A stretch of 64,000 bases of DNA, taken from an uncultured Actinomycetota bacterium. Its GTDB lineage: Bacteria > Actinomycetota > Actinomycetes > Mycobacteriales > Micromonosporaceae. The position numbers and the translations under genes are program-made. Position 1 is the stretch's first letter, and each line of letters opens with the position of its first letter. The stretch spans positions 133,804 through 197,803 of the forward strand of contig CAWDLX010000013.1 in the NCBI GenBank assembly GCA_963803345.1, written 5' to 3'. This document shows positions 12,878-64,000 of the stretch, piece after piece. A model generated the notes under the pieces. That model was given only the letters and a program-made list of their open reading frames with translations. It searched no databases and was not told the origin of the DNA.

Positions 12878-12896
12878 CTGAACCTTTCCGTGTGGG

Positions 12897-22076: not shown

Positions 22077-22228
22077 TTAGTTCCGGTGCCCGGACCCCGG
22101 CTGCCCGCTGTGGGCGCCGGGGGACGGGTGCTTCAGCGATCTTGGACTGCCCGATCTCGCCCTACCTCAGCGGCGCGTCTATTAAGAGTTACTTGGCGGC
22201 ATATGCCCCAATCGTGCAATCTGAAGGT

Positions 22229-24010
22229 GTGGGCATCCCGGCGAGGCCGTCAGCGGCATTGGTGGCGGCGTGGCGACAACGTCTGCGCGCCGTCGAATCA
22301 GACCCACCACCGCAGCGTCGGTTGCCGCCCGACCGCCCGTACGGTGAGCTGGCCGCGTCCCTGGTCGCCACCCGTGATGTGGTGTCGGAGGCCCGGTTCC
22401 CGCTCGATCTGACCAGCGCATCCCACGCCCGCGACGCGGCGGCGGCCTTGGCCGGTCAGCTCAACGACTACATCCTGCCCAGACTGCTCCGGATTGACGC
22501 CCCGCTCCTGGCGGTGGTGGGCGGCTCAACCGGCGCCGGCAAGTCGACGCTGGTGAACAGCCTGGTCCAGGCGCCCGTCAGCCGGGCCGGAGTGATCCGG
22601 CCGACCACGCGCTCCCCGCTGCTGGTGAGCAACCCGGGCGACGCGGGGTGGTTCGCACAGGCGGAGATCCTGCCGGACCTCGTCCGCTCGTCCAACTCCG
22701 GCGAGCGGACACTGCAGATCGTCAACGCTCCCGCCCTGCGCCCCGGGGTTGCCCTGCTCGACGCGCCGGACATCGACTCGGTCGTCACCGCGAACCGGGA
22801 ACTTGCCAGGGAACTGTTCGCAGCCGGCGACCTGTGGCTGTTCGTCACCACGGCGGCCCGCTACGCCGACGCCGTGCCGTGGCGGCTGCTCCGGGAGGCA
22901 CGGTACCGCGGCACCTCGGTGGCCATCGTCCTCGACCGGGTGCCGGCGGAGGTCGCCGATGAGGTAGCCGGCCACTTCGGGCAGATGCTGGCCGCGCAGG
23001 ATCTTGGCGACGAGCCACTCTTCGTCGTGCGAGAGTCCACCTTGGACGGACACGGGCTACTGCCCGAAGATGAGGTGCGCGCCGTCAAGCAATGGCTGGA
23101 CGAGGTGGCCGGCAGTATCAGCCGTCGGCGGGCCATGACCGCCCGGACGCTGCTCGGAGCGGTCAACGCCGTTCCGGCGCGCACCGATGAGCTCGCTCTC
23201 GCGGCGGACGAGCAGGTGGCCGTGCAGACCCGGCTGGCCACCGCCTGCCGCCAGGCCTTCGCCGCGGCGATGGCCGATGTGGAGACGCAGCTCCGGGGTG
23301 GCGCGGCCCTGCGGGGCGAGGTCTACGCCCAGTGGTTACGACTGCTGGGTACTGGTGATCTTGGTCCGGCGCTGCGCAGTGCGACGGACCGCCGCGGCGA
23401 TGAGGCCGTTCCGGTACGCGGCAACCAGGCTCATCCGGGCGTCGAGTTCCTGGCCACGATCGCATCCACCATGGCCGGGCTGATCGCCGAAGCCGACGTC
23501 ACCGCGACCAACCTGTGCCGCGAGAACTGGCGGGCCGAGCCGTCCGGTCGGTTCTTCCTCGCCACCGACTCGGGACTCGGGCGACCCTGGACCGGCTTCG
23601 CCGACGCCAGCCATGATCTCGTGTACCAGTGGCAGCGCTGGGTACAGGCGCTGGCCCGAGCGGATGCGCCACCGGTACGGACCCCCTCGCGGTCGTACTC
23701 GACCGCGGCCACGGTCCTGTTCGTGACCATTGCTGCCGTGGCGCCGCCGCGAGAGTCCGTCACGACGACCAGTCCGGCCGCTGACGTCCTGCGCCGGATA
23801 CTGGCCGACGAACACCTCCGGGTGCTGGCCGAGCGGGCTCGGGCCGAACTGCTCGTCCGGGTTGGTGACCTGCTCCAGGCCGAGGTCGACCGCCATCTGG
23901 CACCGATCGTCGCGATCGAGGCCGACCATGCGCTCGCCCAGCGATTGCGCGACGCCGCTGGCCGGGTGCGGGCGGCCGGGCTGGCCACCCGGACGGGCGT
24001 CGCCGCGTGA
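22229..24010 (+). CDS. dynamin-like GTPase (DynA-like)
   Basis: In-frame part of ORF 21587-24010. P-loop: LLAVVGGSTGAGKSTLVNSL. Also LLDAPDIDS, WLFVTTAARYADAVPW and VAIVLDRVP, followed by a long helical stalk. The start is approximate (GTG 22229; GTG 22214 is also possible). Confidence 0.75.
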   Translation: MGIPARPSAALVAAWRQRLRAVESDPPPQRRLPPDRPYGELAASLVATRDVVSEARFPLDLTSASHARDAAAALAGQLNDYILPRLLRIDAPLLAVVGGSTGAGKSTLVNSLVQAPVSRAGVIRPTTRSPLLVSNPGDAGWFAQAEILPDLVRSSNSGERTLQIVNAPALRPGVALLDAPDIDSVVTANRELARELFAAGDLWLFVTTAARYADAVPWRLLREARYRGTSVAIVLDRVPAEVADEVAGHFGQMLAAQDLGDEPLFVVRESTLDGHGLLPEDEVRAVKQWLDEVAGSISRRRAMTARTLLGAVNAVPARTDELALAADEQVAVQTRLATACRQAFAAAMADVETQLRGGAALRGEVYAQWLRLLGTGDLGPALRSATDRRGDEAVPVRGNQAHPGVEFLATIASTMAGLIAEADVTATNLCRENWRAEPSGRFFLATDSGLGRPWTGFADASHDLVYQWQRWVQALARADAPPVRTPSRSYSTAATVLFVTIAAVAPPRESVTTTSPAADVLRRILADEHLRVLAERARAELLVRVGDLLQAEVDRHLAPIVAIEADHALAQRLRDAAGRVRAAGLATRTGVAA

Positions 24011-25635
24011 CCGCGCTGCTGGCCGGCGGCCCGCGGACGGGAGCGCCGGCCAACTACGCCGCGCAGGCCGATGCGCTGGCCGACCGGTTCGACGCGCTCG
24101 GCCGGTTCGTCCGGCTCACCTGGGGCCACGTCGCCGCCGCCCCGGAGATGTCCGATGTGGATGCCTCCGCGGTCGCCGCGGCCGGGGTGCTCAGCGAACG
24201 GGCGGCGGCCCGGCTACGACTGGCCGGTGGCCATACGGTGGTCGCCCTGGCCGGTGCGACCGGCAGCGGCAAGTCGAGCATGTTCAACGCGCTGGCCCGG
24301 ATGAACCTGTCCGCCACCGGGCACCTGCGACCGACCACCGGCGCGGCGCACGCCTGCGTCTGGGGCGAGCGGGGAGCGGACGATCTGCTCGACTGGCTCG
24401 GGGTGACCCACCGGTTCCGCCGCGAGAGCCCGCTCGACGCGCAGGATGAGGCGTCGCTGCACGGCCTGGTGCTGCTCGACCTGCCGGACCTCGACTCGGT
24501 CGCCACCGGGCACCGGCTCGAGGCCGAGCGACTGGTCGGCGTGGTCGACCTGGTGGTCTGGGTGCTCGATCCACAGAAGTACGCCGACCAGAGCGTGCAC
24601 GGCGAGTACCTGCGGCACATGGGTCCGCTGCGTGATGTGACCGTCGTCGTGTTCAACCAGGCCGACCGGCTCAGCCCGGCCGACACCAACCGCTGCCTGG
24701 CCGACCTGCGCCGTCTGCTCGACGCCGACGGGCTGCCGGACGTCCCGATCCTCGCCACGTCGGTGCGGTCAGGGGCCGGCGTGAACCGGCTCCGGCGACT
24801 GCTCGAACGGACCGTCGCCGGGCGCCACGCCGGACTGGCCCGGCTCGAAGGTGAGCTGGACGAGGCGGTCGGCGGCCTGGTCCCGCTGGTTCGCGACGGG
24901 CATCCGTCAGCGGCCGAGGACGCGCTCGACCGGCACGTGGTGTCCGACTTCGCCGGCGAGTTGGCCGACGCGGCCGGGGTGATGGCGGTCGCCGCCGACG
25001 CCGGTCGAAGCTACGCCCGGCGCGCCCGGGTACCCGGTTGGCCATTGCGGCCCCGCGGTGCCGGCGCCGTGCCCGCCGACCGTCGCGTGCCACCCGCCGA
25101 CCCGGCCGCCGTCGCCGTCGCGGTCCGGCGGATGTCGGCGACCGCCGGAGCTCGCCTACCGGCACCCTGGCCGGACCAGATCCAGGCGGCGGTGGGCGGC
25201 GGCCTCGACCGGCTCCCCGACGAGCTGGGCGACGCCCTGACCCGGGTCAACCCGCCGCTGCCCAGCCGAGCGGGCTGGGCAGCGGCCCGTGTGTTGTGGT
25301 GGCTGGCGGTGCTGGCGGCGGTCGCCGGCCTGGGCTGGCTTGCCGGCGCCGCGTGGGACGGCGGGGGCGTTCAGCCGCCCCGTCCCGGCGGGGTGAGCCT
25401 TCCGGTCCTCCTCATCGGTGTCGGTTTCGTCCTTGCTGTGGCGGTGCCCCTGGTATGCCTACCGTTGGCGCGGCTGTGCGGCCGCCGCTACGCCGACCGG
25501 GTCCTGCGCCGACTCCGGGAAGCCGCCGGCAGCGTCGCCCGCGACAGCGTCGGACCAGCGCGGCTGGTCCTGCGGGACTACAGCGCCGCCCGGTCAGCCC
25601 TGGAGATCGCGGCGACCCGGACGGACGGCGGTTAA
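24007..25635 (+). CDS. dynamin-like / GTP-binding protein with C-terminal TM hairpin (DynB-like)
   Basis: Intact 542-aa ORF. The GTG start overlaps the upstream stop (GTGA). P-loop VVALAGATGSGKSSMFNAL, then LVLLDLPDLDS and VVFNQADRL. Two C-terminal TM helices: VLWWLAVLAAVAGLGWLAGAAW and LPVLLIGVGFVLAVAVPLVCLPL. Confidence 0.75.
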   Translation: MTALLAGGPRTGAPANYAAQADALADRFDALGRFVRLTWGHVAAAPEMSDVDASAVAAAGVLSERAAARLRLAGGHTVVALAGATGSGKSSMFNALARMNLSATGHLRPTTGAAHACVWGERGADDLLDWLGVTHRFRRESPLDAQDEASLHGLVLLDLPDLDSVATGHRLEAERLVGVVDLVVWVLDPQKYADQSVHGEYLRHMGPLRDVTVVVFNQADRLSPADTNRCLADLRRLLDADGLPDVPILATSVRSGAGVNRLRRLLERTVAGRHAGLARLEGELDEAVGGLVPLVRDGHPSAAEDALDRHVVSDFAGELADAAGVMAVAADAGRSYARRARVPGWPLRPRGAGAVPADRRVPPADPAAVAVAVRRMSATAGARLPAPWPDQIQAAVGGGLDRLPDELGDALTRVNPPLPSRAGWAAARVLWWLAVLAAVAGLGWLAGAAWDGGGVQPPRPGGVSLPVLLIGVGFVLAVAVPLVCLPLARLCGRRYADRVLRRLREAAGSVARDSVGPARLVLRDYSAARSALEIAATRTDGG

Positions 25636-27976: not shown

Positions 27977-28961
27977 ATGGGCGTGCAGCCGCGCTTCGGT
28001 GCAGGCAGTCGGGTTCTGGTCGCCGGCGGTGCCGGATTCGTCCCGTCTCACCTCGTCGAGCGCCTGATCGCCCGTGGGGCCACCGTGGTGGCGCTCGACA
28101 ACTTCATCACCGGGGCGAAGGAGAACGTCGCGCACCTCGAGGGCCACCCGCGTTTCACGCTGATCGAGACCGACGTGTCCATGCCGATGCCGGCTGATGC
28201 TGGAGGCGCTCAGCCGCCGCTTCGACGCGATCCTGCACCTCGCCTCACCGGCCAGTCCGACCGACTTCCGCAAGCTGCCGATCGAGATCATGAAGGCCAA
28301 CGCGCTCGGCGCCCTGCACCTGCTCGAACGGGCGGTGGCCGACGGTGCCCGGTTCCTGATGGCCTCGACCTCGGAGGCGTACGGGGACCCGCTGGTGCAT
28401 CCTCAGAGCGAGGACTACTGGGGCAACGTCAACCCGGTCGGCGAGCGGGCCGTCTACGACGAGTCGAAGCGTTTCGCCGAGGCGGCCACGATGGCCTATC
28501 ACCGGGACCTCGGTGCCGATGTCGCCATCGTGCGGATCTTCAACACCTACGGCCCTCGCATGGCCATGACCGACGGGCGTGCGGTACCGACGTTCATCCG
28601 ACAGGCGCTGCGGGGTGAACCCATCACGGTCTTCGGTACCGGGAGCCAGACCCGCTCCATCTGCTACGTCGACGACCTGGTCTCGGGCATCATGGCCCTG
28701 CTCGACTCGACCGAGACCGGGCCGATCAACTGTGGTACGGAGCATGAGATCAGCGTGGTCGACCTGGCCCGCACCGTGGTCCGGCTGACCGGCAGCGACT
28801 CGCAGATCGTGTTCCTGCCCCGTACCCCGGACGACCCCGACCAGCGCCGTCCCGACCTGACCCGGGCCCGGACCCTGCTCGGCTACGAGCCCGACGATCG
28901 GCCCGGAGGAGGGCCTCCGCCGCACGATTGCGCGAACTTCGCGTCGCGAATCAGGATCTAG
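27977..28961 (+). pseudogene. UDP-glucuronate decarboxylase (UDP-xylose synthase, extended SDR), frameshifted
   Basis: ORF 27977-28618: RVLVAGGAGFVPSHLVERLIARGATVVALDNFITGAKENVAHL. ORF 28197-28961: [13 protein letters not shown]...[41 protein letters not shown]...[11 protein letters not shown]...[18 protein letters not shown]. Slips are near 28190 and 28890. Confidence 0.8.
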
Positions 28962-29091: not shown

Positions 29092-30332
29092 ATGATGACG
29101 ACACCGGGCCCAGAGGACAATCCCGAGCAACCGGCCCAGCGATGGACCGGCCGGGCCAGCGTCGGCTCCTCGGCTACGCCGGCGCCGGCCGCGCCCGGGT
29201 CGACCTCGGTGTCGGGCCGGGCGACCGTCGACGCGTACCGCGCCTCGTCGCTCCGCCTCCGCCGCCGGTGGCGGTCTGGCCCCGCCGCCGCCACCGGCGG
29301 ACCCGGCCTCTACGGCGGGGCGCCGGCAAGAGGAAGCTGAGGCCGCGTTGGGGTCGCATCGCCCTGGTCGGCCTGCTGGTCATCGGACTCGTCACCGCCG
29401 GCGTCGTCCTGTGGGGCTTCCTCTACATCCAGCACGTCAACGACAACCTCAAGCGCACCGACTCGATCGACAGCATGGTCGGCAGCACCCGCCCGGGGAA
29501 GGGGGTCTCCGGGGCGCTCAACATCCTGCTGCTCGGCTCGGACTCGAGGGACCCGGACCAGCCCGTCAACGTCGGTGGCAACTGGCGCACCGACACCATT
29601 GAGCTCATGCACATCAACGCCAACCACGACAAGGCGTACCTGGTCTCGTTCCCCCGCGATCTCTGGATCCACATCCCCAAGAGCAAGACCAGTCAGTACG
29701 GCGACACCGACGCCAAGATCAACGCCGCCACGGCATGGGGCGGGGTACCGCTGGTGGTGCAGGCGGTGGAGGAGTACAGCGGGGTCCGGATCGACCACCT
29801 CGCGTTGATCGACTTCGCCGGATTCGTCCAGGTCACTGACGCCCTCGGCGGCGTCGACATGAATATCGAGCAGACGATCACCTCGATCCACCAGCCGCAT
29901 CGGACGTTTCACGCCGGCATGAACCATCTCAGTGGTGCTGAGGCGCTCGACTACGTCCGGCAGCGCAAGCAGTTCGCTGACGGGGACTTCGCCCGCATCC
30001 GCCACCAGCAGGAGTTCCTCAAAGCGGTGCTGGACAAAGCGGTCAGCGCGGGAACGGTGGCGAGCCTGGACAGACTGACCTCGTTCGTGTCCTCGGTGGC
30101 CAACTCGTTGACGGTGGACAAGGACTTCTCGCTCCTCGACGTGGCCTGGCAGTTCCACAGCCTGCGTAGCAGCGATCTGACGTTCCTGACCTGCCCGAAC
30201 AACGGTACGGGCAACGTCGACGGACAGAGCGTCGTGCTGACGGACCCGGCCAAGGCGAAGTCCTTGTTCACGGCGATCAACGCGGACACGATGTCCCAGT
30301 GGATCACCCAACCCGGCAACGTACCGAAGTAG
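29092..30332 (+). pseudogene. LCP (LytR-CpsA-Psr) family glycopolymer ligase, paralog 1; frameshift in N-terminal tail
   Basis: The cytoplasmic tail MMTTPGPEDNPEQPAQRWTGRASVGSS... is in ORF 29029-29340. TM helix plus catalytic domain are in ORF 29142-30332: RIALVGLLVIGLVTAGVVLW, NILLLGSDSRD, RTDTIELMHI, YLVSFPRDLW, LDYVRQRKQFADGDFARIRHQQEFLKA. The slip is somewhere in 29225-29335. Confidence 0.8.
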
Positions 30333-30531
30333 CGCGCGGCCCGGCGACTGGTGCGGAGCAGGGCCCCGGTAGCCTGGGCCTGGCTGGGGCGGGCGTATCC
30401 GCGGTTGATTCGGTAGTCTGTCCGCGGCTTACCGCTGGACGCGCGGTGCCCCGTTTCCGCGCGTCGGTGCCCGGTGCACCCCAGTCGCTCGACGACGGGC
30501 AGCCCGATGACCCCTCCGTCGAGGAGCCGCT

Positions 30532-31716
30532 ATGACGATCTACGCCGACCCGGCGACGCGACCGCGTCGGCCGGGGGGCGACCCGCCGCGGCGTCCTCGA
30601 GCGAGCCGGTCCCGCCCCGCGCGGAAGAAGCCCAAGGATCCTATCTGGGCCAAGCTCTGCGTGATCATGGGCGCCCTCGTCATGGTCGTCGCTGGTGCGG
30701 CGGTGGTCCTGCCCCGGGTGCTGGCCAACTGGGCGGTGTCGAACATCCCGCGGGCGAACCTGGTACCACAGGGCCTGCAGGGCAAGGACATCAGCGGACC
30801 GATCAACTTCCTGTTGCTCGGGATGGACCAACGGCTCGGCAGCAATGACCTCATCCGGGCGGACACCATCATCATCGTGCACATCCCGGCAGATCATCAG
30901 ACCGCGTACCTGGTGTCGCTGCCCCGTGACGCCGAGGTGCAGATCCCGGCCTATCCCGATACGGGGTTCCGCGGCGAGCTCACCAAGATCAACGCTGCCT
31001 TCGCGTTCGGCTGCCAGAAGAACGGTCAGGGCGACTACACCACGCCGGCCGGGAGCGCGGTGCCGCGCTGACCATGAGACCATCAACGCGCTCGTCCCGG
31101 GCGGACTCACCTTCAACGGCGCCGCGATCATCAACTTCGACGGGTTCCGCGACGTCCTCAAGGCGATGGGCGGCGTCGATCTGTGCGTCGATGTGGAGAC
31201 CCGGTCGATCCACTACGACAACAAGGGCGTGTACCACACGAACGAGGTGCCATTCGCCCAACAGAAGGTCTACAAGGTCGGCTGCCAGCACTTCGACTAC
31301 ATCTCGGCCCTGGACTACTCCCGCCAGCGTCACTTCGACACCGGTGACTACGTACGCCAGCGTCACCAGCAGCAGTTGCTCATGGCGATCATGAAGAAGC
31401 TCGCCTCCGCCGGTACCCTGACCGACCCGAGCAAGCTGGCCGCGCTGCAGAAGTCAGCCGGCAACCTGTTGACCCTCGACCTGGGCAACACCTCCACCCT
31501 GGACTGGATCGTTCACCCTCAAGGGCATCGACACCAAACACATCGTGATGATCAAGACGAACGCCGGCAAGATAACGCCCGGCACGATCAAGGGCAACGA
31601 GGCGTTCTCGCCGGAGAGCATGAAGATGCTCAAGGCGATCCACGACGACAACATCTCGACTTCCTCGGCGGTCACCCGACTGGATCACCGCCGACACCAC
31701 CCCGAAGCAGGCGTGA
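30532..31716 (+). pseudogene. LCP family glycopolymer ligase, paralog 2; frameshifted
   Basis: ORF 30532-31071: TM LCVIMGALVMVVAGAAVVL, NFLLLGMDQR, RADTIIIVHI, YLVSLPRD. ORF 30695-31885 middle: INFDGFRDVLKAMGGVDLCVDV...LDYSRQRHFDTGDYVRQRHQQQLLMAIMKK. ORF 31545-31769: MIKTNAGKITPG... Ends ...WITADTTPKQA* at TGA 31714-31716. Confidence 0.8.
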
Positions 31717-31779
31717 GGCGAGCGCTCCGGCTTTGCACAAAGCCCCGGCGGCCGTTGCCCGGCGCCTAGAGTCGGCCCC

Positions 31780-32833
31780 ATGCCTGCATCGCCGGTGTCC
31801 ACCGACGAGTCGGCACCCGGCGCGGCGGCCCGGCGCGGGCGGCGGCGGTTACCCCGGATCCTGGTCGGCATTGGCATCGCCCTGACGCTGCTGATCGGGC
31901 TGGTCGCTGTCGGCGGGTTCCTGCTGGTGCGGCGATACGAGAGCGCCTTCAACCGGGATACCCTGCTCGCCCCGGGTGCCCGGGCGGCCGGCCAGGGATC
32001 GCTGTCCGGGCCGCTGAACTTGCTGCTGATCGGCTCGGACTACCGGACCTGGAGTCCCACGGCCGGTCAACGGTCGGACACGATCATCATCGCCCACATA
32101 CGCGAAGGCCTGGACCACATCTACCTGCATCTCGATTCCGCGTGATCTGCTCGTACACATCCCGGCTGATCCGGCAGGCGGTTCGGCGGGGCGGTTGCGA
32201 AGATCAACACGGCGTTCGAAGCTGGTCACGGCGGCTCAGCCGGGATGCAGCTGCTCTCACGCACGCTCAACGATCTGTCCGGGATCCGGTTCGACGGGGC
32301 GGCAGCGGTCCGCTTCGACGGTCTCAAGCAGGCGGTCGACCTGCTCAACGGGGTGAACTTGTGCGTGGACGTGCCCACCACCTCCATCCACACCAGGAAG
32401 TTCTTCCCGGTCGGATGCCGCCTGATGAACTCGACCGATGTCCTCGACTACCTTCGCCAGCGGGAGCAGTACGCGGACGGCGACTTCACCCGGCAGCGCC
32501 ATCAGCAGCAGTTTCTCAAGGCCATCCTGCAACGCGCGGCGTCCACCGGCATGCTGACCAATCCGGTGAAGCTCGACCAGTTCATCCGGTCGGTGGGCTC
32601 GGCGATGACGGTCGACACCGGCAGCCATTCAGCTCGCCGACGTGACCCTGGGGCTGCGCGGGATCGGCGCCGGTGAGCTCACCGGTGTCAAGATCCCTTC
32701 GTCCACCGAGACCCTCAACGGACAGTCGGTGGTCGTCGCCACCTGGGAGGCGAGTCCTCTGTTCGCGGCCCTGCGCGACGACACGCTCGACACGTGGATC
32801 CGCCAGCATCCGCGGTGGACGAACAACATCTGA
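31780..32833 (+). pseudogene. LCP family glycopolymer ligase, paralog 3; frameshifted
   Basis: ORF 31780-32145: TM ILVGIGIALTLLIGLVAVGGFLL, LNLLLIGSDYR, RSDTIIIAHI. ORF 32245-32676: RFDGLKQAVDLLNGVNLCVDV...LDYLRQREQYADGDFTRQRHQQQFLKAILQR. ORF 32642-32833 is the C-terminus ...TWIRQHPRWTNNI*. Confidence 0.8.
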
Positions 32834-32856
32834 GCCGCGCCTGCTATACAGGCCTT

Positions 32857-33198
32857 GTGTCCGACCGCCGAAGTCTGCCCGAGGTCAGTCCCGCCGAGGT
32901 GACTGACGACGCGCTCCTGATCGACGTTCGGGATGGCGACGAATGGGCGGCCGGGCACGCGCCGCAGGCCCGCCACGTGCCCATGATGGAGATCCCCGGC
33001 CGGGTCGACGAGTTGCCCCGTGACCGCGACATCGTGTTCGTGTGTCGGGTCGGCTCCCGATCGGCTCAGGTCGTCGCGTATCCTGATGGCCCAGGGGTTT
33101 CGACCGGGTGGCCAACCTCGGCGGCGGCATGTTCGCCTGGGAGGCGGCCGGCCGGGCCGATGGTCAGCGATGCCGGGCAGCCCGCCTTCGTGTTGTGA
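32857..33198 (+). CDS. rhodanese-like domain protein (ORF open, internal out-of-frame patch)
   Basis: GTG 32857 in ORF 32794-33198: LLIDVRDGDEWAAGHAPQARHVPM...IVFVCRVGSRSAQVVAY. The expected LMAQGF / RVANLGGGMFAWEAAGR segment is only readable in the two other frames (ORFs 33020-33319 and 33108-33881). The frame then returns for PMVSDAGQPAFVL*. Confidence 0.65.
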   Translation: MSDRRSLPEVSPAEVTDDALLIDVRDGDEWAAGHAPQARHVPMMEIPGRVDELPRDRDIVFVCRVGSRSAQVVAYPDGPGVSTGWPTSAAACSPGRRPAGPMVSDAGQPAFVL

Positions 33199-33978
33199 GC
33201 GGCCACTGGTTTTCGCCCACCGGGGCGCATCGGCCGAGCTGCCCGGAGCACACTCTCGAGCGCCTACCTGCGGGCCATCGAGCAGGGCGCGGACGGGCTC
33301 GAGTGCGACGTCCGGCTGACCCGCGACGGGCACCTGGTCTGCATCCACGACGGCCGGCTCGACCGGACCAGCAACGGCCGGGGCCGGGTCAGCGGGGCCA
33401 CCCTGGACGAGCTGGAGCGGCTCGACTTCGGCGTCGTGGCACCGGGCCGGCCCAGCCGCGCCCGAGACCACCCCGACCGGGGTGCTCACCCTCGACCGGC
33501 TGCTCACCGACCGTGCGGGCCGCCGGCCGGCCGCTGCGTCTGCTGATCGAGACCAAGCACCCGACCCGGTACGGCAGCGAGGTGGAGGACCGGTTGGTCG
33601 CGCTGCTCGCGCGGCACGGCCTGACCGTCGCCGATCCGGCCGACCCGGTCCGGGTCACCGTGATGTCGTTCTCGCCGCTGGCGCGTCCGTCGGGTGCGTA
33701 CGCTGGCTCCGCGGTTGCCGATGGTGTTCCTGTTCGAGGTGGCCACGCCGGGAGTCCGGGACGGTCGGCCCCCGTTCGGGGCGCAGATTCTCGGCCCCGG
33801 CTCTGCCCGTGCTCAAGGCCCGGCCGGAGCTGGTCGAGCGGGCCCACGAGCGAGGGCACGCGGTGTTCGTGTGGACCGTGAACGACCCGGACGAGGTCGA
33901 CCTGGTCGCTCGGACTCGGGGTGGACGGGATCATCTCGGACCGGCCCGGCGGACACCCTGTCCCGGCTGGGCCCTTGA
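33195..33978 (+). pseudogene. glycerophosphodiester phosphodiesterase, frameshifted
   Basis: RPLVFAHRGASAELPEHTL...GADGLECDVRLTRDGHLVCIHDGRLDRTSNGRG, ...LRLLIETKHPTRYGSEVEDRLVALLARHGL, ...HAVFVWTVNDPDEVDLVARLGVDGIISDRP are spread over three frames (ORFs 33020-33319, 33108-33881, 33482-34015, 33694-33978). GTG 33195 overlaps the rhodanese stop. A 1-nt slip comes right after the start. Confidence 0.75.
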
Positions 33979-34081
33979 TCGCACCGCCGCTCTGGCCTTC
34001 ACCGGCCCGGGGTAGGCAGACTCGGCGCATGCCCATCGACTACCGGTCGCCTGGTGAGCGGCACTCAGTTCGCTCGCGAGC

Positions 34082-35270
34082 ATGGCGTCCGAGTCGGCGG
34101 GACTGCCGGCCCTGCAGTCGCTGATCACCACGGCGCAGGAGGCCACCGGGGCCAGGGCCGCGACCTTCATCGAGTTCCGCCACAACAGTGGGCCGCATCG
34201 TGCTGGCCACCGGCGCGATGATCACCTCACTGGGCCAGCCGATCGCGCCGGACCTCGCCGACTGGCGCCACCGTCCACCGGACACAGCTCTGCGTCGCGT
34301 TGACTCGATCCCGCCCGAGCTGGCCGAGCGGCCGCTGCGCCAAGGGCTGGTCAGCGCTCATCGCGGCCGTCATCCGCCGTGGCAACGAGCCGATCGGGGT
34401 CGTTCCACCTCTACTTCGACACCTATGAGGTGGACGACCTCGAGGCCGTCATGTCCATTGTGGACCTGACCGCGAAGACGGCCCGCAGCATCTTCCACCC
34501 GCCGCAGACCGCCTCACTCGCGAGCGTGGCCGATGCCGAGGACCGGGCGCTCTTCCTCGCCGTGGCCGGGCATGAGCTGCGCACTCCGGTCACCGTCATC
34601 AAGGGGTACGCCGGCATGCTGGCCGACCGGTGGGACGTGCTCGACGAAGGGAACCGGCGGGAGGCGTCCCGGGTGCTGACGATCCGGGCTGACGAACTGG
34701 CCCGGCTGGTCGACCGGATGCTGCGCGCGTCGACCGGTGAGAGCGAGGCCGGGTGGTTGGTCCGCACGGTGCCGTTCGATCCGGTGGAGGCGTTGGCCCG
34801 GACTGCGCATGATCTTCCCATGGACCTACGGCGGTGCGCTGCGGCTGCAGGTGCCGGAGGGCCTGCCGATGGCCATCGGTGACCCGAGCCTGCTCACCTC
34901 GGTCGTGGCTGAGCTCGTCACGAACGCGGTGCGGGCCACGCCCCCGCAGACCGGGCGGGACGGGCCACCCAGTGTCGACCTCAAGGCCGGCGCCGACAGC
35001 GAGACCGTGTACATCCAGGTGCACGACCGCGGGGTGGGTATCGATCCCAGCCAGGCGGAAATCGCCTTCGAGAGGTTCTGGCGGGCGCCGCACCAAGCCG
35101 CGGACGCGCGTCCGGGGGTCGGACTCGGCCTGTATCTCGTCAGACGGCTCGTGGAGCGACAAATGGGATGGGTATCATTACGTCCTCGAGACGGTGGCGG
35201 CACCGTCGCCGAGGTCCGACTGCTGCGGGCGGACGGGCCGGATCGTCGAGCACTGCTCGGGGAGGCATGA
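34082..35270 (+). pseudogene. GAF-domain sensor histidine kinase, frameshifted
   Basis: MASESAGLPALQSLITTAQEATGARAATFIEF (ORF 34082-34303). ...GSFHLYFDTYEVDDLEAVMSIVDLTAKTA...FLAVAGHELRTPVTVIKGYAGML is the H-box (ORF 34379-34882). ...VAELVTNAVRAT...VHDRGVGID...GVGLGLYLVRRLVE...GGTVAEVRL (ORF 34737-35270). An alternative start is ATG 34029. Confidence 0.7.
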
Positions 35271-40344: not shown

Positions 40345-40426
40345 GAACGTGACGCTAGTCGAACCGGCGGTCCGCCGCGACGGGACCCATCCTTGCGGGG
40401 CAGTCGGTGCTGCCACACTGGGCGCG

Positions 40427-41072
40427 ATGAACATCGGCGTTCTGGGCACCGGCGTGGTCGGCCGGTCGTTGGCCACCCGGCTGGTCGAGGTGGGTCATCG
40501 GTGGCGCTCGGCACCCGTGATCCGGCCGCCGAAGGACCGCGCCAATGGCTGGCCCGGGTCGGGCCGGCCCGCGGGCGGCTGGGTACGTTCGCCGAGGCGG
40601 CCACGTTCGGGGCTCTGGTGGTGAACGCGACCTCCGGAGCCGCGTCGATCGCCGCGCTCAAGCTCGCCGGGGAGCGCAACCTGCACGGCAAGGTACTCAT
40701 CGACGTGGCCAACCCGCTCGACGCGGTGGACGCAGTGCCGTCGCTGTCGGTGGTCAACACGGACAGCCTGGGCGAGCAGATCCAGCGCTCCTTCCCCGAG
40801 GCCCGGGTGGTCAAGGCGCTCAACACGGTCAACGCCGAGGTGATGACCCATCCCGGTCGGCTGGCGAGGAGCACACGATGTTCGTCGCCGGGGACGATGC
40901 CGAGGCCAAGGCGACAGTCGCCGACCTGCTCCGGTCGTTCGGTTGGAAGTCCATTCTGGACATCGGTGGGATCTCCGGCGCGCGGGGCATGGAGACCTAC
41001 ATGCTGCTGTGGCTGGCGCTGGCGCAGACCCAGGGAACTGTCGCGTTCAACGTGAGGATCGTTCGCGCATGA
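40427..41072 (+). pseudogene. NADPH-dependent F420 reductase-like oxidoreductase, frameshifted
   Basis: MNIGVLGTGVVGRSLATRLVEVGH (ORF 39938-40624 frame, ATG 40427). ...GTFAEAATFGALVVNATSGAASIAALKLAGERNLHGKVLIDVANPLD...ARVVKALNTVNAEVMTHPG (ORF 39910-41055). ...HTMFVAGDDAEAKATVADLLRSFGWKSILDIGGISGARGMETYMLLWLAL...* (ORF 40545-41072). Confidence 0.65.
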
Positions 41073-42658
41073 CATCCAGCTACGACGCGGTCATCATCGG
41101 TGGTGGCCACAATGGACTGGTTGCCGCCGCCTACCTGGCCCGGGCCGGACGCCGGGTGGTCGTCCTCGAGCGGCGCGATGTCGTCGGCGGAGCAGCCGTG
41201 ACCGAGCAGCCGTTCGGGCCGGACTACCGGGTGACCTCACTGTCCTATGTGGTGAGTCTGTTCCCGCCCGACATGGTCCGTGACCTCGACCTGACGGCGC
41301 ACGGGTACCACGTGTATCCGCAGGGTCCCTACTTCGCTCCGCGCCGAGACGGCCGGGCGCTGCACCTGTCCGACGATCCGCGGCTGCGACGCGAGCAGAT
41401 CGCGGCGTTCGCGCCGGCCGATGCCGGGGCCTACGAGCGGTGGAACGCCTGGCTCGGCGGGCTCGGCGCACTGGTCGGTCCGCTGCTGTCGACCATCCCG
41501 CCCCGGGTGGGCTCGCACCGGCCGGCCGATCTGGTCAGCCAGGCCGGCCTGCTGCGGACCGGGCGCAAGGTCGACGTGCGTACGGCGTACGACCTGACCA
41601 AGCTTTTCACCACCTGCCTGGCCGACCTGCTCGAGGACCGGTTCTCCTCCGACGCCCTGCGCGGGGTCCTCAGCGTCTCCGGAGTCATCGGTACCTGGGC
41701 CGGACCGCGCAGCCCGGGTACGGCGTACGTCGCCCTGCATCACCACATCGGTGAGACGACGTGGGGCTTCCCGCGCGGCGGCATGGGCGGGGTGACCCAG
41801 GCGATCGCCGGCGCGGCCCGACAGTTCGGGGCCGAGATCCGTACCGGGGCCGGCGTGGTCCGGGTCGAGATCGGCAATGGGCGGGTGCGCGGGGTCACGC
41901 TCGCCGCCGGCACCCAGATCTCGGCGCCCGTGGTGATCACGACCGCCCACCCCCGGATCTTCCTTCCTCGAGCTGGTCGGCCGGGAGCAGCTGCCAGCCG
42001 ACTTCGTGGCCGACATCGAGGCGTGGCGGAGCCGGTCGGGCACGGTCAAGGTGAACTATCGCGGTCGACCGGCTGCCCGTGTTCACCGCCCATCCCGAGC
42101 CCGACCCCGAGGTGTACGGCGGCACGATCGTGCTGGCCGAGTCGCTCGACGACATCGAGACCGCGTTCCAGGACGCGGTGGCTGGACGGGCCGCCGAGCT
42201 GCCGTTCGCCGACATGTGCATCCCGAGCGTGCTCGACCCGACCCTGGCGCCGGAGGGCCACCACATCGTCAGCGCCTTCACCCAGTGGGTGCCGCACGGC
42301 TGGGTCGACGATCCGCACGCGGACGAACTGGACGCGTACGCCGACCGCCTCACCGCCCGGCTGGAGGCGGTCGCGCCCGGGTTCACCGACTCGATCGTCG
42401 GGCCGCCAGGTCATCGGCCCGGACACGATGCAGTCCGAGTACGGGCTGGTGGGCGGAAACATCTTCCACGGCGAGCTGACGGTCGGGCAGATGTTCCACT
42501 GCCGCCCGGCGGCGGGCTACGCCGACCTGCGCACCCCGGTACGGGGGTTGTACCAGGCCGGCAGCGCCACCCACGGCGGTGGCGGCGTGACCGGCATACC
42601 CGGCCGCAACGTCGTCCGCCAGGTACTGCGCGATCAGCGGGGGCTGCGCCGGCGCTGA
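41069..42658 (+). pseudogene. phytoene desaturase family NAD(P)/FAD-dependent oxidoreductase, frameshifted
   Basis: ATG 41069 overlaps the upstream stop (ATGA). MTSSYDAVIIGGGHNGLVAAAYLARAGRRVVVLERRDVVGGAAV... is intact to about 41960 (ORF 40943-42658). The middle part is in ORF 42079-42744 (VFTAHPEPDPEVYGGTIVLAESLDDIETAFQDAVAGRAAELPFADMCIPSVLDPTLAPEGHHIV...). It returns to the first frame for IGPDTMQSEYGLVGGNIFHGELTVGQMFHCRP...GLYQAGSATHGGGGVTGIPGRN. Confidence 0.75.
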
Positions 42659-57958: not shown

Positions 57959-58152
57959 CCGACCATCCTGCCGCCCGCGCCGCCCTCCCCGCTTGATCGC
58001 CTTCCGCAACCCTTCTGGATCTTGTCATTCCGAGGCCCCTCTGGGGGCTCAGACATGCCAAGATCTCGGCCGCCATCGCCACCTCTCGGCGGGCGGCGGT
58101 GATCTGGTGTCTGGCACACTTGCGGTCGGGACACCGGCGCGCCGGTCGTCTT

Positions 58153-58239
58153 GGAGGGCTCGCCTAGTGGCCGATGGCGGCGGTCTTGAAAACCGCTTCA
58201 GGAGCGATCCTGACGTGGGTTCGAATCCCACGCCCTCCG
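58153..58239 (+). tRNA. tRNA-Ser (anticodon UGA)
   Basis: The sequence folds by hand. Acceptor GGAGGGC / GCCCTCC plus discriminator G. Anticodon stem GCGGT/ACCGC with loop CTTGAAA (TGA). Long variable arm TTCAGGAGCGATCCTGAC. T arm GTGGG-TTCGAAT-CCCAC. CCA is not encoded. Confidence 0.95.
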
Positions 58240-58518
58240 CCTTGACCAGCCATAACGGAGATCGCACCTGGAACCCGCAGGGGTGATCTTGCCGGTATGG
58301 ACACTCTATGGACACAGACTGCCGAGAGATTTCCCGGAGCCGTACACGGGCGGACGAGGGGCGACTCGACCCGCCCACCAGTGACTGCCTTCCTGGCGGC
58401 ACAGCAATGCGTGATATGCCGTGGACGGGTCACCGGCCGAGGTGAGCACATCGACCACGAGGCGTGATGCACGCTTCTGGGCCTGCCGGGTCCGTTTACC
58501 CTCGACCTGAACTTTGCG

Positions 58519-61100
58519 CTAACTGGTGGCTCGTATGCGTTCGCGTGCCTGAACACGCAGCGCTTGTCTGACCTCCGTGTGGACGTCGACGCGTGCGGTG
58601 GCGGCCAGCTCGAGCGAGACCGCGATGCCGTACCGAACAGGCGGCGAGGCCGTTCTGGCTTCGCGAATGCCTGCGTCGATGTCGATGCGAAGCGCTTGCC
58701 CATTGGTGAAGGCGACTGCCGCGCTTCCTTCGAGAACTTCGTGCTGCACCGTGCCTCTTGTCACAATGTGATGATCGGCCTGGGTCCGTCGCACTCCGAT
58801 CTCCTGCTGCGGCGGCTGAAACTTGAGCACCGCCAAACGGTGGCGCTGCGTGCGGGTGTTGACGGGCGACAGCCACGCCAGCGTGATCGTCATTCGCCTC
58901 CACTCGGTCGTTGTGGAGAGGCTTGGTGGAAGCGGGAAAGCAAGTGTGTGGCGCTCGTGATCGCGAATGGACCCGGCGCCAATGAGCACGGCACGGGTCC
59001 GGCTCGCTGCAGCCACTCGGTCTCGATCGAGGGCGCCGTATCCGACGAGCTGCGTGACGTCGCGCCTCAACGTCGCGTTCGCCAAGCCGAGCGCGTCTGC
59101 GAGCCAGGGCCTCATCTCGCCCCACGAGGCGGCGTGCACTAGGAGCGCCTTGGCTAGGACCGGGTGATACTGCGGGTCCGGGAACCGGAACTCGCCTTCC
59201 TCCGATTCGGTCGTCTCCAGCACGTCAAGGACTTGGTTGGTGATCCGTGTCGCGAGCGCGGCTGCGTTGCTAGTGCCGTGGGTGAACGCGGTCGCCTGAA
59301 GGTCCCCGTGGTGGCCTGGCGCTGCGACACGTAGACCTGGACCGAGCGCCGCTGTCGAAGCTGGCAAGAGCGCCACGTGGCTGCCCGTGGTCTGGGGCGG
59401 CCGTTGAAACAGCTGTCGGCCGCCCGGGAGCAGGATCTCGGGTTTGACCGCTCGCCGGTAGCCGAACCCGACCGCGCTGTACAGCGCGGGCATGCCTGCC
59501 TGACCTGCGTCCAAGATTGAGTCAGAGACCGTCGCGTCCGCGTCGTCGTCATGGAGGGCGCCGACGGTCACGACGTTGACGGCTTCGGCGGGCGAAAACA
59601 GCCGCCGCTGACGAGCACGGGAATGGATGTCCGCGGCAACGATCTTGCGGAGAGTTGTCTCGTCGTGAACGACGTGCGCCGGGAACAGTGGCGGCCACTG
59701 GATGGTTGCCCGCGCTTACCAGGACGACCAGGTTGTAGCGGTGGGCAAGCCAGTCGAGAAGCTTGGCTAAGGGGCTCATGCGGCGGGCGAAGGTTCTGGC
59801 CGGATCCCCGATCGACAGGTTGACTACACGCACGCTCGGTGCGGCCGGCGGCTGCTGGCCGTCGCCCTCGAAGATGCGGCGGAAGGCTCGGTGAACCAGG
59901 TCCACGAGCAGCTCGTTGCGGACCGTCGTCTCCTCCTGGGGGTTGGCCGGATGCGGCTCCAGGATCGGCCGAACATATAGCCGGGTGGATAGCGGAAGCC
60001 CTTGCGAACCGAGGTCACCGTGGCAGATAAGGGAGGCCATCGCTGTCCCGTGCTGGCGCTGCGCGGCTGTGTACCGGCTCGCGTAGTCATCGGGGTCGTC
60101 GATGACAAGTCGGTCCGCAAGTTGGGCGTGGTTGGCGAGCGGTAAGCCGTCTAAGAGCGCAACACGCGGCGCCGCAATCTGAGGAAGGGGTGCCGTTTCA
60201 GCCGGACCCGCCTCCGATACATCGAGCGCGGGGATAGCCATCGGGCGTGCAGGTGATACGAACATGATCGTCTCCGCGGTGAGGAGCTCGATCGCGTCCG
60301 GGCCAGCTTCGAGTACCGCTTCGACTTGCGCGTAGGGAAGATCCGCAAGAACGGCGTGGTAGCCGATCTCGGCAAGTGTTGCGGTGTTGATCACCGTGCC
60401 TCCGCCGTCGGCTACCAGTCGTTCGACCTCACCCTGAGCGGCCTGTCGACTAGCGATGTCCGATCGGTACCACAGCTCGATCTCAACGCGCGTTGACCCT
60501 GACTGTCCGACGACGGCCTTGTCTTCCTCCCATCTTTCCAGGAGCCCTGTCTCGCGAACCCGGTCCTGGGGTCCCCACCGTCGGATGTCACGCAGGAGCC
60601 CGAACACCGTCTTCAACGAGGCGAGGCCATAGGCGAAGGTGACGTTCGGGTTCGGTCTGCCATCCATCGAACAGTCGGATGAGCTCGGTGACGGCCCGGG
60701 CGTTCGTCATGACCATGTAGAGGGTTTCCGGCACCGGCTTGTCGGCGGGCTGGCCATCTTCGACGTAGTGGAAGTCGTCGTCAGGGTCCGCCTCGTCCTC
60801 CTCTAACTCAGCCAGAAACTCCATGCCTGGAACGCGGCGAACAGCGCCAAGAAACTGCTCAACCGTTCCCACGAGGTCAAAGACGACCACCAACTCCGGA
60901 TCTGGTTCGGTGGTTTCGGTTGCCAGTCGGGCGCGTTCCGCAGCCAGCGCGTCCCGGAGGGCCCGGAACTGGGGGGACAGGCGCTGCCCCTGCCTGGACG
61001 GACTTGGACGGCGCGGTTGCGGTACCGGCCGCTGCGGCCCCGGGGGCGTCTGCTGGACCGTCGGCGCGCCGAAGGCCAGCAATTGGCGCAACTCGGTCAT
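58519..61100 (-). pseudogene. S8 family (subtilisin-like) serine peptidase, IetS-like; two frame slips
   Basis: Three reverse ORFs join. ORF 60588-61121: MTELRQLLAFG...ELVVVFDLVGTVEQFLGAVRRVPGMEFLAE...LYMVMTNARAVTELIRLFD. ORF 59549-60667: ...VALLDGLPLANH (Asp), QHGTAMASLICHGD (His), NLVVLVSAGNH. ORF 58519-59571: ...AFTHGTSNAAALATR (Ser)...LLVHAASW...LSPVNTRTQRHRLAVLKF... Slips are near 60655 and 59700. The ATG at comp. 61098-61100 overlaps the ATPase stop (ATGA). An alternative start is 61121. Confidence 0.8.
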
Positions 61101-62071
61101 TCGTGGGCTTGCGTCCGCCATTGGTCCAGTCTGCTACGAGCGATAGCGCCAAGGTCGGCATCTGGCAGCGTCAACACGTAGCGTCGTCTTACGTCTTGAG
61201 CGAACTCTTCCAACTCCCCGTAGCTCGCGCCCGCGAGTCGGTCCGCCAACGTACGAGGTGCGAGCCCCAGGCCACCGCCGAGCCGAGTGCCCAGCCGTTC
61301 GAAGAACTCGGCTGCCTGGGCGCGCGATGGCGCATTGAGGGTCAGGCGTGCTTGGAACCGGCGCCAAGTTGCCCGGTCGAGCAGCTCGCCGTGGTTCGTC
61401 GCGCAGACGAGGATGACGTGCGAGGGAATCCTGTCGACCTGCAGCAGAAGCGTCGACACCACCCGTTTGATCTCGCCGGTCTCGTGAGTGTCGGCGCGTT
61501 CCTTCGCGATCGTGTCGAACTCGTCGAAGAACAAGACACAACGCCGGGTCCGAGCGAACTCGAAGACCCGGTCGATCCGAGCCGCGGTCTCGCCGAGAAA
61601 GCTGGACACCGTTCCCTCGTACCTGACCGTGTACAGGGGCACCATGACCTCGGCAGCGATGGCTTCTGCCAGGCTGGTCTTGCCGTTGCCGGGCGCGCCC
61701 TCCAACAGGATCCTGTTGCGCGGCTCGATGCCATGACTTCGCAGCAGGTCGACCCGGCGGTGTTCCTCAACGATCTCGGAGGCCACGGTCGCGACGGTCT
61801 TGTTGAGCTGCAGGTCGGCAAGGCGCCGGCGGGGAACGACCTCATGCAGCAGGTCCGACATCTGCCGCCTGACCTCGTCCCGAACGAGAAGATCACTTGA
61901 GCCAGACGTAGTGATCAGCTCGGCGAGACGGTCGGCTACAAGGTGGTGCTGGTTGCTCCGCTCCTCGGCGATGATCGCTTCAACCAATGAGCGAAACCGC
62001 TCACCATCGCCTCGGCGTTGGGCGTCGACCAAGTCGATGATCAGATCAGACCGGGCCACGGCTTCCTCCAC
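61097..62071 (-). CDS. AAA+ family ATPase, IetA-like
   Basis: Intact 324-aa ORF. Walker A: ILLEGAPGNGKTSLAEAIA. Walker B: CVLFFDEFDTIA. Sensor 1: LVCATNHGELLD. Also RATWRRF. It lies immediately upstream of, and is translationally coupled to, the S8 peptidase gene. Confidence 0.85.
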   Translation of the reverse strand: MEEAVARSDLIIDLVDAQRRGDGERFRSLVEAIIAEERSNQHHLVADRLAELITTSGSSDLLVRDEVRRQMSDLLHEVVPRRRLADLQLNKTVATVASEIVEEHRRVDLLRSHGIEPRNRILLEGAPGNGKTSLAEAIAAEVMVPLYTVRYEGTVSSFLGETAARIDRVFEFARTRRCVLFFDEFDTIAKERADTHETGEIKRVVSTLLLQVDRIPSHVILVCATNHGELLDRATWRRFQARLTLNAPSRAQAAEFFERLGTRLGGGLGLAPRTLADRLAGASYGELEEFAQDVRRRYVLTLPDADLGAIARSRLDQWRTQAHE

Positions 62072-62158
62072 CTGTCGACTTACCCAACTGTAAGGGCCGC
62101 GGTGCCCGGAGGTCCTGGCAAGACCTGTGAGCGACGGCCGTTAGTATATGATAGTCAT

Positions 62159-62449
62159 ATGATTCAGGCGGGACCGTCGGTGACACGCTTGTTGTGCGCG
62201 ACGGACCGTTGCTCGACGCTGGTCCACTGGCCCATCGAGGTGAATCGCAGGCTTGATCAACTTCAGGATCTCGCGACCGGTGCGGGGACCCACGTCAGCC
62301 GCGCTCAGATCCTGGCTGCACTGGTGATGGCCGCGGAAGAGAGCGGTGAGGCCGTCGCCGAACTCGTCCGCATATATCGCCTCATGGAGGCGGGCGACCT
62401 CGCCGAGCCTGCCGATGGACGCCGACCTGGCCCCCGCAAGATCCGTTAA
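62159..62449 (+). CDS. hypothetical small protein (possible ribbon-helix-helix-like regulator)
   Basis: ATG 62159 inside ORF 62018-62449: MIQAGPSVTRLLCATDRCSTLVHWPIEVNRRLDQLQDLATGAGTHVSRAQILAALVMAAEESGEAVAELVRIYRL... The strand-helix-helix pattern is only suggestive. It is divergent from the ATPase gene. Confidence 0.4.
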   Translation: MIQAGPSVTRLLCATDRCSTLVHWPIEVNRRLDQLQDLATGAGTHVSRAQILAALVMAAEESGEAVAELVRIYRLMEAGDLAEPADGRRPGPRKIR

Positions 62450-62716
62450 CACTGAAGGTCGGCGCCGTGGCCTTGCCGGTGAGGGCGTCCGGTGTTCGTG
62501 TCAAGTGAGGGTGCGGCGAGCAAAGTCCTTGCACCGGGCACGACATGGCCGAATTCGGGCGCTTAGTGGAGGCCCGGCATCAATGACAGTTCCGTCGGTG
62601 CGGCGGGTGGGGTACGTCCTGTTGGACCTCGCTAGGGTTGCGGCATGTAGCTCCGCCTGAAAGGCCGTAGGGCTAGGGCCGGGGCTTAACGCGCACCAGG
62701 AAGGACGAGCTGCCGG

Positions 62717-64000
62717 ATGCCCCGCTTGACCCTGCCGCAGCTGGAGCGGCACCTGTTCACAGCTGCCGACGTGCTCCGCGGCTCCATGGAGGCATCGGCC
62801 TATAAGGAATACATCTTCGGGATGCTGTTTCTGAAGTATGCCTCGGACCAGTTCGAGGCGGAGCAGCAGCAGGTTATCGCCGAGCAGCGCTTACGTGGCC
62901 GCAGCCAGGCTGACGCTGAGCAGCGCGCCGAGTCGCCGTCGTTCTACAAGACGTTCTACGTGCCGCAGCGGGCCCGCTGGGAACAGATCCGTGATCATCT
63001 CCATAAGACGGTCGGGAGTGGGCTGAACAAGGCGCTGGAGGAGCTGGAGCACAGTAACCGGTCGCTCGACGGGGTGCTGCAACACATCGACTTCAACCGC
63101 AAGATCGGCCAGTCGTCGATGTCCGACAAGAAGCTGCGCGAGCTGATCATGCACTTCAACAAGGTGCCCCTCCGGCAGCAGGACTTCGAGTTCCCCGACC
63201 TGCTGGGCGCTGCCTACGAATACTTGATCCGCGACTTCGCCGACTCGGCAGGGAAGAAGGGCGGGGAGTTCTACACGCCCCGCGACGTGGTCCGTCTGAT
63301 GGTGCAGATCGCCGACCCGCATCCAGGGATGAGCGTTTACGACCCATGCACCGGCTCGGGCGGCATGCTGATCCTCTCCAAGGAATACATCGAGGAGTCG
63401 GGTGGTGATGGGCGCAATCTGGCGCTCGCCGGCCAAGAGAAGGACGGCAGCGTCTGGGCCATCTCCAAGATGAACATGCTGCTCCACGGCATCCCGGACG
63501 CCGACCTCCGCAACAACGACGACGGCACGCTCGAAGACCCGGCTCACATCACCGGCGGTGAGCTGCAACGGTTCGACCGCGTGATCACCAATCCGCCGTT
63601 CTCGATGAACTACGTGGCTGACGCCATCCCGTTCCCCGAGCGCTTCCGTTACGGCTACACCCCCGACAAGGGCAAAAAGGCCGACCTTATGTTCGTCCAG
63701 CACATGCTGGCGGTGACTCGGCCGGGCGGCATGGTCACAACGGTCATGCCTCACGGCGTGCTCTTCCGCGGTGGAGACGAGGGCCGGATCCGTACCGGTT
63801 TCCTGAACGACGACCTCATCGAGGCTGTCATCGGCCTCGGGCCGCAGCTCTTCTACGGCACGGGCATCCCTGCCTGCATACTGGTGCTCCGCCCGGTCGG
63901 CTCAAAGCCCGCGGCGCGCAGGGGCAAGGTGCTGTTCATCAACGCCGACCGGGATTACCGGGAGGGCCGGGCGCAGAACTATCTGGAGCCCGAGCACATC
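62717..64000 (+). CDS. hsdM: type I restriction-modification system methyltransferase subunit HsdM (3' end outside window)
   Basis: Not in the ORF track because it is open at the window edge. ATG 62717, 428 codons in frame to base 64000: [46 protein letters not shown] (HsdM N domain), [30 protein letters not shown] (motif I), RVITNPPFS (motif IV), [10 protein letters not shown]. Confidence 0.9.

Follow-up and report, generated by a model that had tools for sequence, protein, structure and literature searches.

A probable IetAS pair, its ietS frame breaks read as assembly errors, beside a serine tRNA gene of a Micromonosporaceae-like actinobacterium

IetAS modules pair an AAA+ ATPase, IetA, with a subtilisin-like (S8) protease, IetS. 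Here, we describe such a pair in a 64,000-nt stretch of an uncultured actinobacterium (contig CAWDLX010000013.1 of assembly GCA_963803345.1, positions 133,804 to 197,803), which we refer to as the window and from whose first letter all positions are counted. We think it likely that the window holds a canonical IetAS system of a Micromonosporaceae-like actinobacterium, situated at a tRNA-Ser gene, at the edge of an acquired stretch of lower guanine-plus-cytosine (GC) content that also carries type I restriction-modification, and that the two frame breaks in its ietS gene are assembly errors. The breaks are read as insertion or deletion errors of the assembly because frameshifts occur throughout the window, the catalytic residues of the protease are kept and only 2 of 116 invariant columns are changed. 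Most likely, each reflects one base wrongly inserted in an assembly that was built from long reads or is otherwise unpolished and probably represents a metagenome-assembled genome; the actual ietS gene is probably intact. The nearest named relatives of the window's seryl-tRNA synthetase (SerS) are Micromonosporaceae, with only 80-83% identity, which suggests an uncultured organism; the identical SerS protein is on record (NCBI/ENA) from a single 199-kb contig, in keeping with a metagenome-assembled genome. The IetAS family and the actinobacterial subfamily concerned here, modelled in PADLOC and with more than 3,000 homologues, are already known, and the pair is one further copy.

The ietA-ietS pair and its subfamily

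The two genes are read from the minus strand (coordinates of these and other features are collected in Table 1), the stop codon of ietA (TGA, 61099-61097) sharing bases with an ATG at 61100-61098 in an ATGA overlap at 61097-61100. Translation from another in-frame ATG, at 61121, would produce the N-terminus MADASPRMTELRQ... (MADASPRM...), which resembles that of some homologues (P0002, P0005). Depending on the start, the genes overlap by 4 or 25 nt and IetS is about 859 residues long (stitched from the ATG at 61100) or 866 residues long (from 61121). A promoter and terminator scan of 58100-62800 gave nothing exceeding shuffled sequence.

IetA gives a full-length match to the PADLOC IetA model PDLC04232 (E 1.1e-141; residues 6-323 on profile positions 2-321 of 330), matches three further PADLOC IetA models at E 2e-81 to 3e-63 and contains the Pfam AAA domain (PF00004, E 3.6e-28). 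Its motifs are GAPGNGKT as Walker A (K131), VLFFDEFD as Walker B (D183/E184) and ATNHG as sensor-1 (N226). The closest relatives among solved structures are p97/VCP and NSF (E ~3e-36), and IetA can be aligned to both D1 and D2 of p97/VCP, with K131, D183/E184, N226 and the arginine finger R237/R238 all corresponding. Pore loop-1 (F158-L159-G160 within SFLGE, an aromatic-hydrophobic-glycine arrangement) aligns with the substrate-gripping loops of p97. The pore loop and the p97-like motor motifs suggest that IetA acts as a motor that threads or remodels proteins. IetA shares Walker A, Walker B, pore loop-1, sensor-1 and the arginine-finger region with p97/VCP/Cdc48 and NSF, but the latter proteins have two tandem AAA+ modules and adaptor-binding N-terminal domains, whereas IetA has one AAA+ module (324 residues) after a helical N-terminal region of about 100 residues.

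As sequenced, ietS is spread over three minus-strand frames (60588-61121, 59549-60667 and 58519 to at least 59571), the products of which match, in order, positions 1-148, 148-480 and 507-851 of the 855-position PADLOC IetS model PDLC04233 (E 8.5e-41, 4.2e-128 and 3.1e-113, respectively). Pfam Peptidase_S8 matches the second and third fragments. The stitched protein has a complete catalytic set, with D317 in ALLDGLP, H350 in HGTAMAS, the oxyanion Asn N465 in SAGN and S610 in GTSNAAA, all four being invariant columns in alignments of 10 and of 61 sequences, and 60 homologues, at 54-64% identity, align with it from end to end. Homologues of the corrected IetS number more than 3,380, the top identity being 67% and over 100 lying at 54-67%; those named by source are mostly Actinomycetota (e.g. 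Blastococcus, Mycobacterium, Mycolicibacterium and Pseudonocardia). Together, these matches support the assignment of ietA and ietS as an IetAS pair. They agree with an earlier note on the window, which had described from its letters a two-gene minus-strand operon with the ATGA overlap, a 324-residue AAA+ ATPase with the three motifs given above and a peptidase of about 860 residues with ALLDGLP, HGTAMAS and GTSNAAA, and had likened the two to IetAS; profile searches of the kind that it had proposed, here with PADLOC IetA and IetS and Pfam AAA and Peptidase_S8 models, all gave matches.

The same note had recognised no family in the large N-terminal region of the peptidase, and the first, most N-terminal fragment indeed has no Pfam match. 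An AlphaFold2 model of the corrected IetS (mean predicted local distance difference test (pLDDT) 85, predicted template-modelling score 0.88) finds its best fold matches in the PDB in PCSK9, site-1 protease, pro-Tk-subtilisin and furin (Foldseek E 5e-14 to 1e-8). Like IetS, these proteins have an S8 core with an alpha/beta module on its N-terminal and a beta domain on its C-terminal side, at 12-18% identity and whole-chain template-modelling (TM) scores of 0.2-0.3. The N-terminal 305 residues of IetS, modelled separately (pLDDT 71), look like tandem ferredoxin-like (ACT-like) modules; fold matches of the region to ACT, BMC-T and ferredoxin-like folds are weak and generic, and we claim no specific family for it. 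A search with the IetS profile among sequences of solved structures found no relative. On the basis of the models, we hypothesize that IetS consists of about 300 residues of tandem ferredoxin-like modules, followed by the S8 domain and a beta-sandwich domain. Prodomain subtilases have a single I9 prodomain, in contrast to the several modules of IetS, and PCSK9-type subtilases, unlike IetS, are secreted or lumenal proteins of eukaryotes and archaea that act without an AAA+ partner.

Gao et al. (2020) reportedly count IetAS among the anti-phage systems. The earlier note had the family named in that screen, which is incorrect, as IetAS first became known as a plasmid-stabilising toxin-antitoxin pair in which the protease is the toxin and the ATPase the antitoxin [PMC13069673]. 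According to that paper, defence depends on an active protease, no ietA mutant could be obtained, in line with an antitoxin role, and how phages are stopped had yet to be explained [PMC13069673]. Work on Salmonella genomic island 1 (SGI1), the maintenance of which is promoted by an IetAS-like pair, SgiAT (S026/S025), cites the pTiC58 IetS/IetA pair [PMC5006074]. IetAS of Bacillus cereus m1293 acts by abortive infection and is toxic once the SPbeta protein YosG is expressed [bioRxiv 10.1101/2022.08.27.505566]. Toxicity, neutralisation and anti-phage or stabilising activity are known for homologues from Agrobacterium, SGI1, E. coli and Bacillus. The earlier statement on the mechanism, that it is unknown, is too strong, the mechanism being partly known (abortive infection, with a phage-protein trigger).

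We used an ATPase/S8-peptidase pair on an Agrobacterium tumefaciens plasmid as a stand-in for the original type of IetAS (pTiC58). As in the window, its ATPase gene comes first and is followed by an S8 peptidase of about 840-860 residues, and the two IetA proteins are 37% identical over 240 residues with the same Walker motifs, the pore loop being KFMGE there and SFLGE here. The window's pair fits the PADLOC set PDLC04231-04234, with far weaker matches to set PDLC02195-02201 (IetS E ~1e-10), and, by sequence, belongs to an IetAS subfamily far from the Agrobacterium-type pair; unlike the plasmid pair, it is chromosomal, actinobacterial and beside a tRNA gene. SgiAT and the B. cereus m1293 system could be compared through their published descriptions only: SgiAT is likewise an ATPase/protease pair on a genomic island, but represents a proteobacterial subfamily, and our window has no visible evidence of excision or mobilisation; the B. 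cereus system is of the same family by name. The IetA/IetS core is also common to ietHAS (Liu-DS4), which adds an SNF2 helicase; no helicase gene is found in the operon described here, where ietA is preceded by a divergent small open reading frame (ORF) and then hsdM.

In a scan of one genome per species (185,579 species genomes), at least 368 loci with an IetS relative were confirmed, the best IetS match among the matches listed being 58% identical, and 80 related loci from many phyla were retrieved for gene-order analysis. All 80 have an IetA homologue upstream of IetS and in its orientation, directly adjacent in 79 of them, and in every one IetS is one uninterrupted frame. The genes flanking the pair in the window are found in none of the 80 loci. 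IetA homologues are also carried by 606 plasmids, 389 of them conjugative, including Agrobacterium plasmids. The unshared flanks and the many plasmid copies mark the module as accessory and mobile rather than housekeeping. The closest plasmid-borne copy is on the Mycobacterium lentiflavum plasmid NZ_CP092424.2 (locus 5545-10533; IetA 73.5% identical), where the ietAS pair lies 740 bp from a parA partition gene, a position that fits a plasmid-stabilisation role.

Frame breaks in ietS and across the window

Both breaks in ietS are single extra bases in short C/G runs. Dropping one base per site makes IetS colinear with full-length homologues without a change in length at either junction: homologues read WQADPxxxFxRGL at frameshift 1 and SAGNHPITATVPAxAL at frameshift 2, in each case equal in length to the corrected protein. 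The earlier note had placed two frame breaks in the peptidase at about 60655 and 59700; both are present in the sequence as given, and its positions are off by about 6 and 20 nt, respectively.

Table 1. Features of the ietAS region of the window. A slash marks the corrected junction
Feature	Positions	Strand	Description
tRNA-Ser(TGA)	58153..58241	plus	ARAGORN; Rfam tRNA model, 53.9 bits
ietS	58519..61121 (or 61100)	minus	S8 (subtilisin-like) peptidase, presumed toxin/effector; three frames as sequenced
frameshift 2	59679..59683	minus	one extra base in CCCGG; corrected ...SAGNHPVAATVP/AHVVHDE...
frameshift 1	60647..60650	minus	one extra base in CCCG; corrected ...WQTEP/NVTFAYGL...
ietA	61097..62071	minus	AAA+ ATPase, 324 aa, classical clade, intact; presumed antitoxin/regulator
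small ORF	62159..62449 (plus) or 62141..62452 (minus)	ambiguous	about 96-103 aa, between ietA and hsdM
hsdM	62717..64000	plus	type I restriction-modification methylase, runs off window end; neighbour, not part of IetAS

Such breaks are not peculiar to ietS. Scoring of stop-to-stop ORFs by codon-position GC reveals numerous coding segments that meet or overlap a neighbour on the same strand in another frame, and a codon-usage hidden Markov model permitting frame switches, run over the window, places about 76 switches (1.4 per kb) in the 52.6 kb read as coding, about 45 of them resembling one-base insertions and about 31 one-base deletions. The model recovered both ietS breaks unprompted, and the density in ietS (two in 2.6 kb) is at or under the window background. 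When seven affected proteins were rebuilt from the codon-model path and scanned against Pfam, 17 of the predicted sites were bridged by single domain matches. The seven genes concerned are unrelated and encode MoeA, MoaB, a LytR-CpsA-Psr (LCP) protein, GDPD, a GGDEF-EAL protein, a UvrD-type helicase and an F420-oxidoreductase/amine-oxidase segment. The sites are spanned by MoeA_N (two) and MoeA_C (one), MoCF_biosynth in MoaB (one), LytR_cpsA_psr (one), GDPD (four, within a single 212-residue domain matched at E 1e-38), GGDEF (one) and EAL (two), AAA_19 in the UvrD-type helicase (one), F420_oxidored (one) and Amino_oxidase (three). Frameshifted regions include 7270-10267, 11234-13829, 14258-16644, 30625-33042, 33253-33907, 34070-35141 and 40418-42646.

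The corrected IetS protein itself shows little sign of decay: of the 116 columns without variation among the 60 other homologues, it departs from 2, the range among those homologues being 0-4. The two departures are adjacent, residues 809-810 reading AG instead of the family's CR (~58672-58677, minus strand). A nearby one-base deletion together with a one-base insertion could explain them (GAC TGC AGG ATT becoming GAC GCA GGC ATT), and they may be another sequencing artefact.

Two other explanations of the breaks have been weighed against assembly error. In the first, the breaks are real, the toxin having been inactivated by two frameshifts and the antitoxin gene ietA kept, perhaps as an orphan 'anti-addiction' gene. 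This would account for an intact ietA beside a twice-broken ietS, and loss of the toxin first is, by general toxin-antitoxin logic, the sole viable order of decay for an addiction module and so the path to be expected. The failure to obtain an ietA mutant points the same way [PMC13069673]. Against it, the frameshift density of the window is equal or higher, with four events in one GDPD domain; IetS lacks degenerative substitutions, as its count of changed invariant columns lies within the homologue range; each event amounts to one surplus base in a short C/G run; and the intact 0.97-kb ietA is unremarkable, since hsdM and serS, stretches of similar length, are likewise unbroken. We therefore regard real decay of ietS as unlikely. 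That both sites are programmed +1 ribosomal frameshift sites regulating toxin output is more improbable by far, to the point of being nearly negligible; the CCCG context common to both would fit, but IetS is in a single frame in 80 of 80 related loci and in 60 of 60 aligned homologues, and like breaks are present in many unrelated genes of the window. Assembly error is thus the reading we keep, and of the two options that the earlier note had left open for this copy, inactive or mis-sequenced, the window-wide frameshifts favour the latter and largely explain away the former. More generally, the rest of a contig should be checked for like damage before a broken defence gene on it is taken for a pseudogene; counts of pseudogenes or 'inactive systems' from this assembly would be inflated, and any single pseudogene call from it is suspect.

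Genomic setting, proposed function and alternatives

At the tRNA-Ser(TGA) gene, GC content drops from about 0.70 to about 0.65, and it remains at the lower level from 58.0 kb onward to the window end, and third-codon-position GC is 0.74-0.79 in ietS compared with mostly 0.85-0.92 in other segments of the window. On the far side of ietA lies hsdM, which matches the PADLOC type I methyltransferase model MTase_I PDLC03031 (E 1.1e-206, profile positions 2-445 of 834) and Pfam HsdM_N and N6_Mtase. The ietAS pair thus looks to be at the tRNA-Ser-proximal edge of an acquired lower-GC island with type I restriction-modification; of the marks of a tRNA-linked island, the compositional break and the clustering of defence genes are present. 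The drop in GC at the tRNA-Ser gene and the adjoining hsdM are in keeping with the earlier view that a type I restriction-modification gene and a tRNA next to the pair support a defence role. A tRNA gene lies within 3 kb of the pair in 7 of the 80 related loci, and in two of these it is a tRNA-Ser beside ietA: in a Cellulomonas genome (locus L007, 8658-8743) and a Microbacterium genome (locus L035, 8709-8799) the tRNA-Ser is 240-280 bp upstream of ietA. Elements with this IetAS subfamily may integrate repeatedly at serine tRNA genes.

From the literature and the anatomy of the two proteins, we infer the following working model. IetS would be a self-restrained protease toxin, held inactive in part by its own N-terminal modules, in a layout that resembles the prodomain, catalytic and C-terminal domains of PCSK9 and kexins. 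IetA, probably a hexameric unfoldase or remodeller, would keep IetS inactive at the cost of ATP, which would be its antitoxin role. The restraint would be lifted by a trigger from a phage or plasmid or when the operon is lost; the freed IetS would then cleave cellular proteins and growth would stop, either as abortive infection or as post-segregational killing, which would stabilise the island. A more specific version, which we put forward tentatively and think rather improbable, is that actinobacterial IetS carries its own sensing or restraining N-terminal lock (the ~300-residue tandem ferredoxin-like region of the model), that IetA is a single-ring unfoldase keeping this lock engaged, and that a phage or ligand signal releases it. 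If true, this would make the subfamily a mechanistically distinct IetAS variant and provide a concrete, testable model of IetAS activation.

The alternatives to a defence function differ in how far they depart from this model. It is possible, albeit doubtful, that the main role of the pair is addiction rather than phage defence, i.e. that it stabilises the tRNA-Ser-linked island or its parent element by post-segregational killing, comparable with SgiAT and pTiC58 IetAS. The position of the pair at the edge of a lower-GC stretch adjoining a tRNA gene fits this role, as do the frequent plasmid-borne homologues, mostly on conjugative plasmids and one beside parA on a mycobacterial plasmid, and the part of the SGI1 pair in island maintenance [PMC5006074]. 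An addiction role is, however, compatible with defence, the adjoining type I restriction-modification gene is in keeping with a defence island, phage protection by IetAS homologues has been shown in experiments, and the window shows no integrase, excisionase or att (attachment site) repeat. Much further from the evidence is a housekeeping protease/chaperone pair, vertically conserved and unrelated to defence or mobile elements. AAA+ ATPases often partner with proteases in protein quality control, which is what such a proposal could draw on, but the pair is patchily distributed over many phyla, shares no flanking genes with any related locus, is atypical for the genome in GC and third-position GC, has many plasmid-borne copies and gives its top matches to dedicated defence-system models. 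We consider this proposal very improbable, and the conserved housekeeping operon that the earlier note had named as the alternative to its defence reading is not what the distribution, flanks and plasmid copies show.

Several points count against a canonical, tRNA-Ser-linked IetAS system with artefactual breaks, the reading favoured here. The evidence for artefact in ietS is statistical rather than direct, the count of codon-model switches is rough, as some of them are overlapping gene boundaries (e.g. at 24007), and real pseudogenisation throughout the genome is formally possible as the source of the frameshifts. Within the 64-kb window there is no repeat of the tRNA-Ser 3' end (att) and no visible excisionase, and 58242-64000 contains no integrase gene; the island's far end is beyond the window. 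The Agrobacterium IetS is 25% identical to ours over the catalytic and C-terminal parts only, the N-terminal ~300-350 residues being unalignable by sequence, and prodomain-like inhibition is drawn from weak structural matches (TM-scores 0.2-0.3). Finally, no experimental test of the actinobacterial subfamily was found in the literature searched.

Other features of the window

The small ORF between ietA and hsdM has no PADLOC match and one Pfam match well under the family threshold, and tblastn against the 80 related IetAS loci found no counterpart; the ORF could be part of the restriction-modification module or spurious. At 28520-28611 (plus strand), ARAGORN calls a 92-nt 'tRNA-Ala(CGC)' with its anticodon at position 38, which scores under the Rfam tRNA gathering score; the call is false, or else insertions or deletions have damaged a genuine tRNA gene.

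Three LCP genes apparently stand in tandem at 29142-33042 (plus strand), the first seemingly intact, the other two frameshifted as sequenced; Pfam confirms the second only, the first and third being assigned by shared translation motifs. Molybdenum-cofactor genes are found at 3896-5158 (plus strand) and 11234-13829 (minus strand) and include a MoaA-like radical-SAM protein, so labelled from reading the translation only, MoeA and MoaE, and MoaC and MoaB; several of them are frameshifted in like manner. The large protein encoded at 7270-10267 (plus strand) has a C-terminal UvrD-type helicase and at least five frame changes as sequenced, and its N-terminal ~450 residues, starting DLHIHSKFS, resemble a PHP-type phosphoesterase. 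At 21587-25635 (plus strand), two large P-loop GTPase-like genes, with the motifs GGSTGAGKST and GATGSGKSS, adjoin through a GTGA overlap at 24007-24010 and may be a dynamin-like pair.

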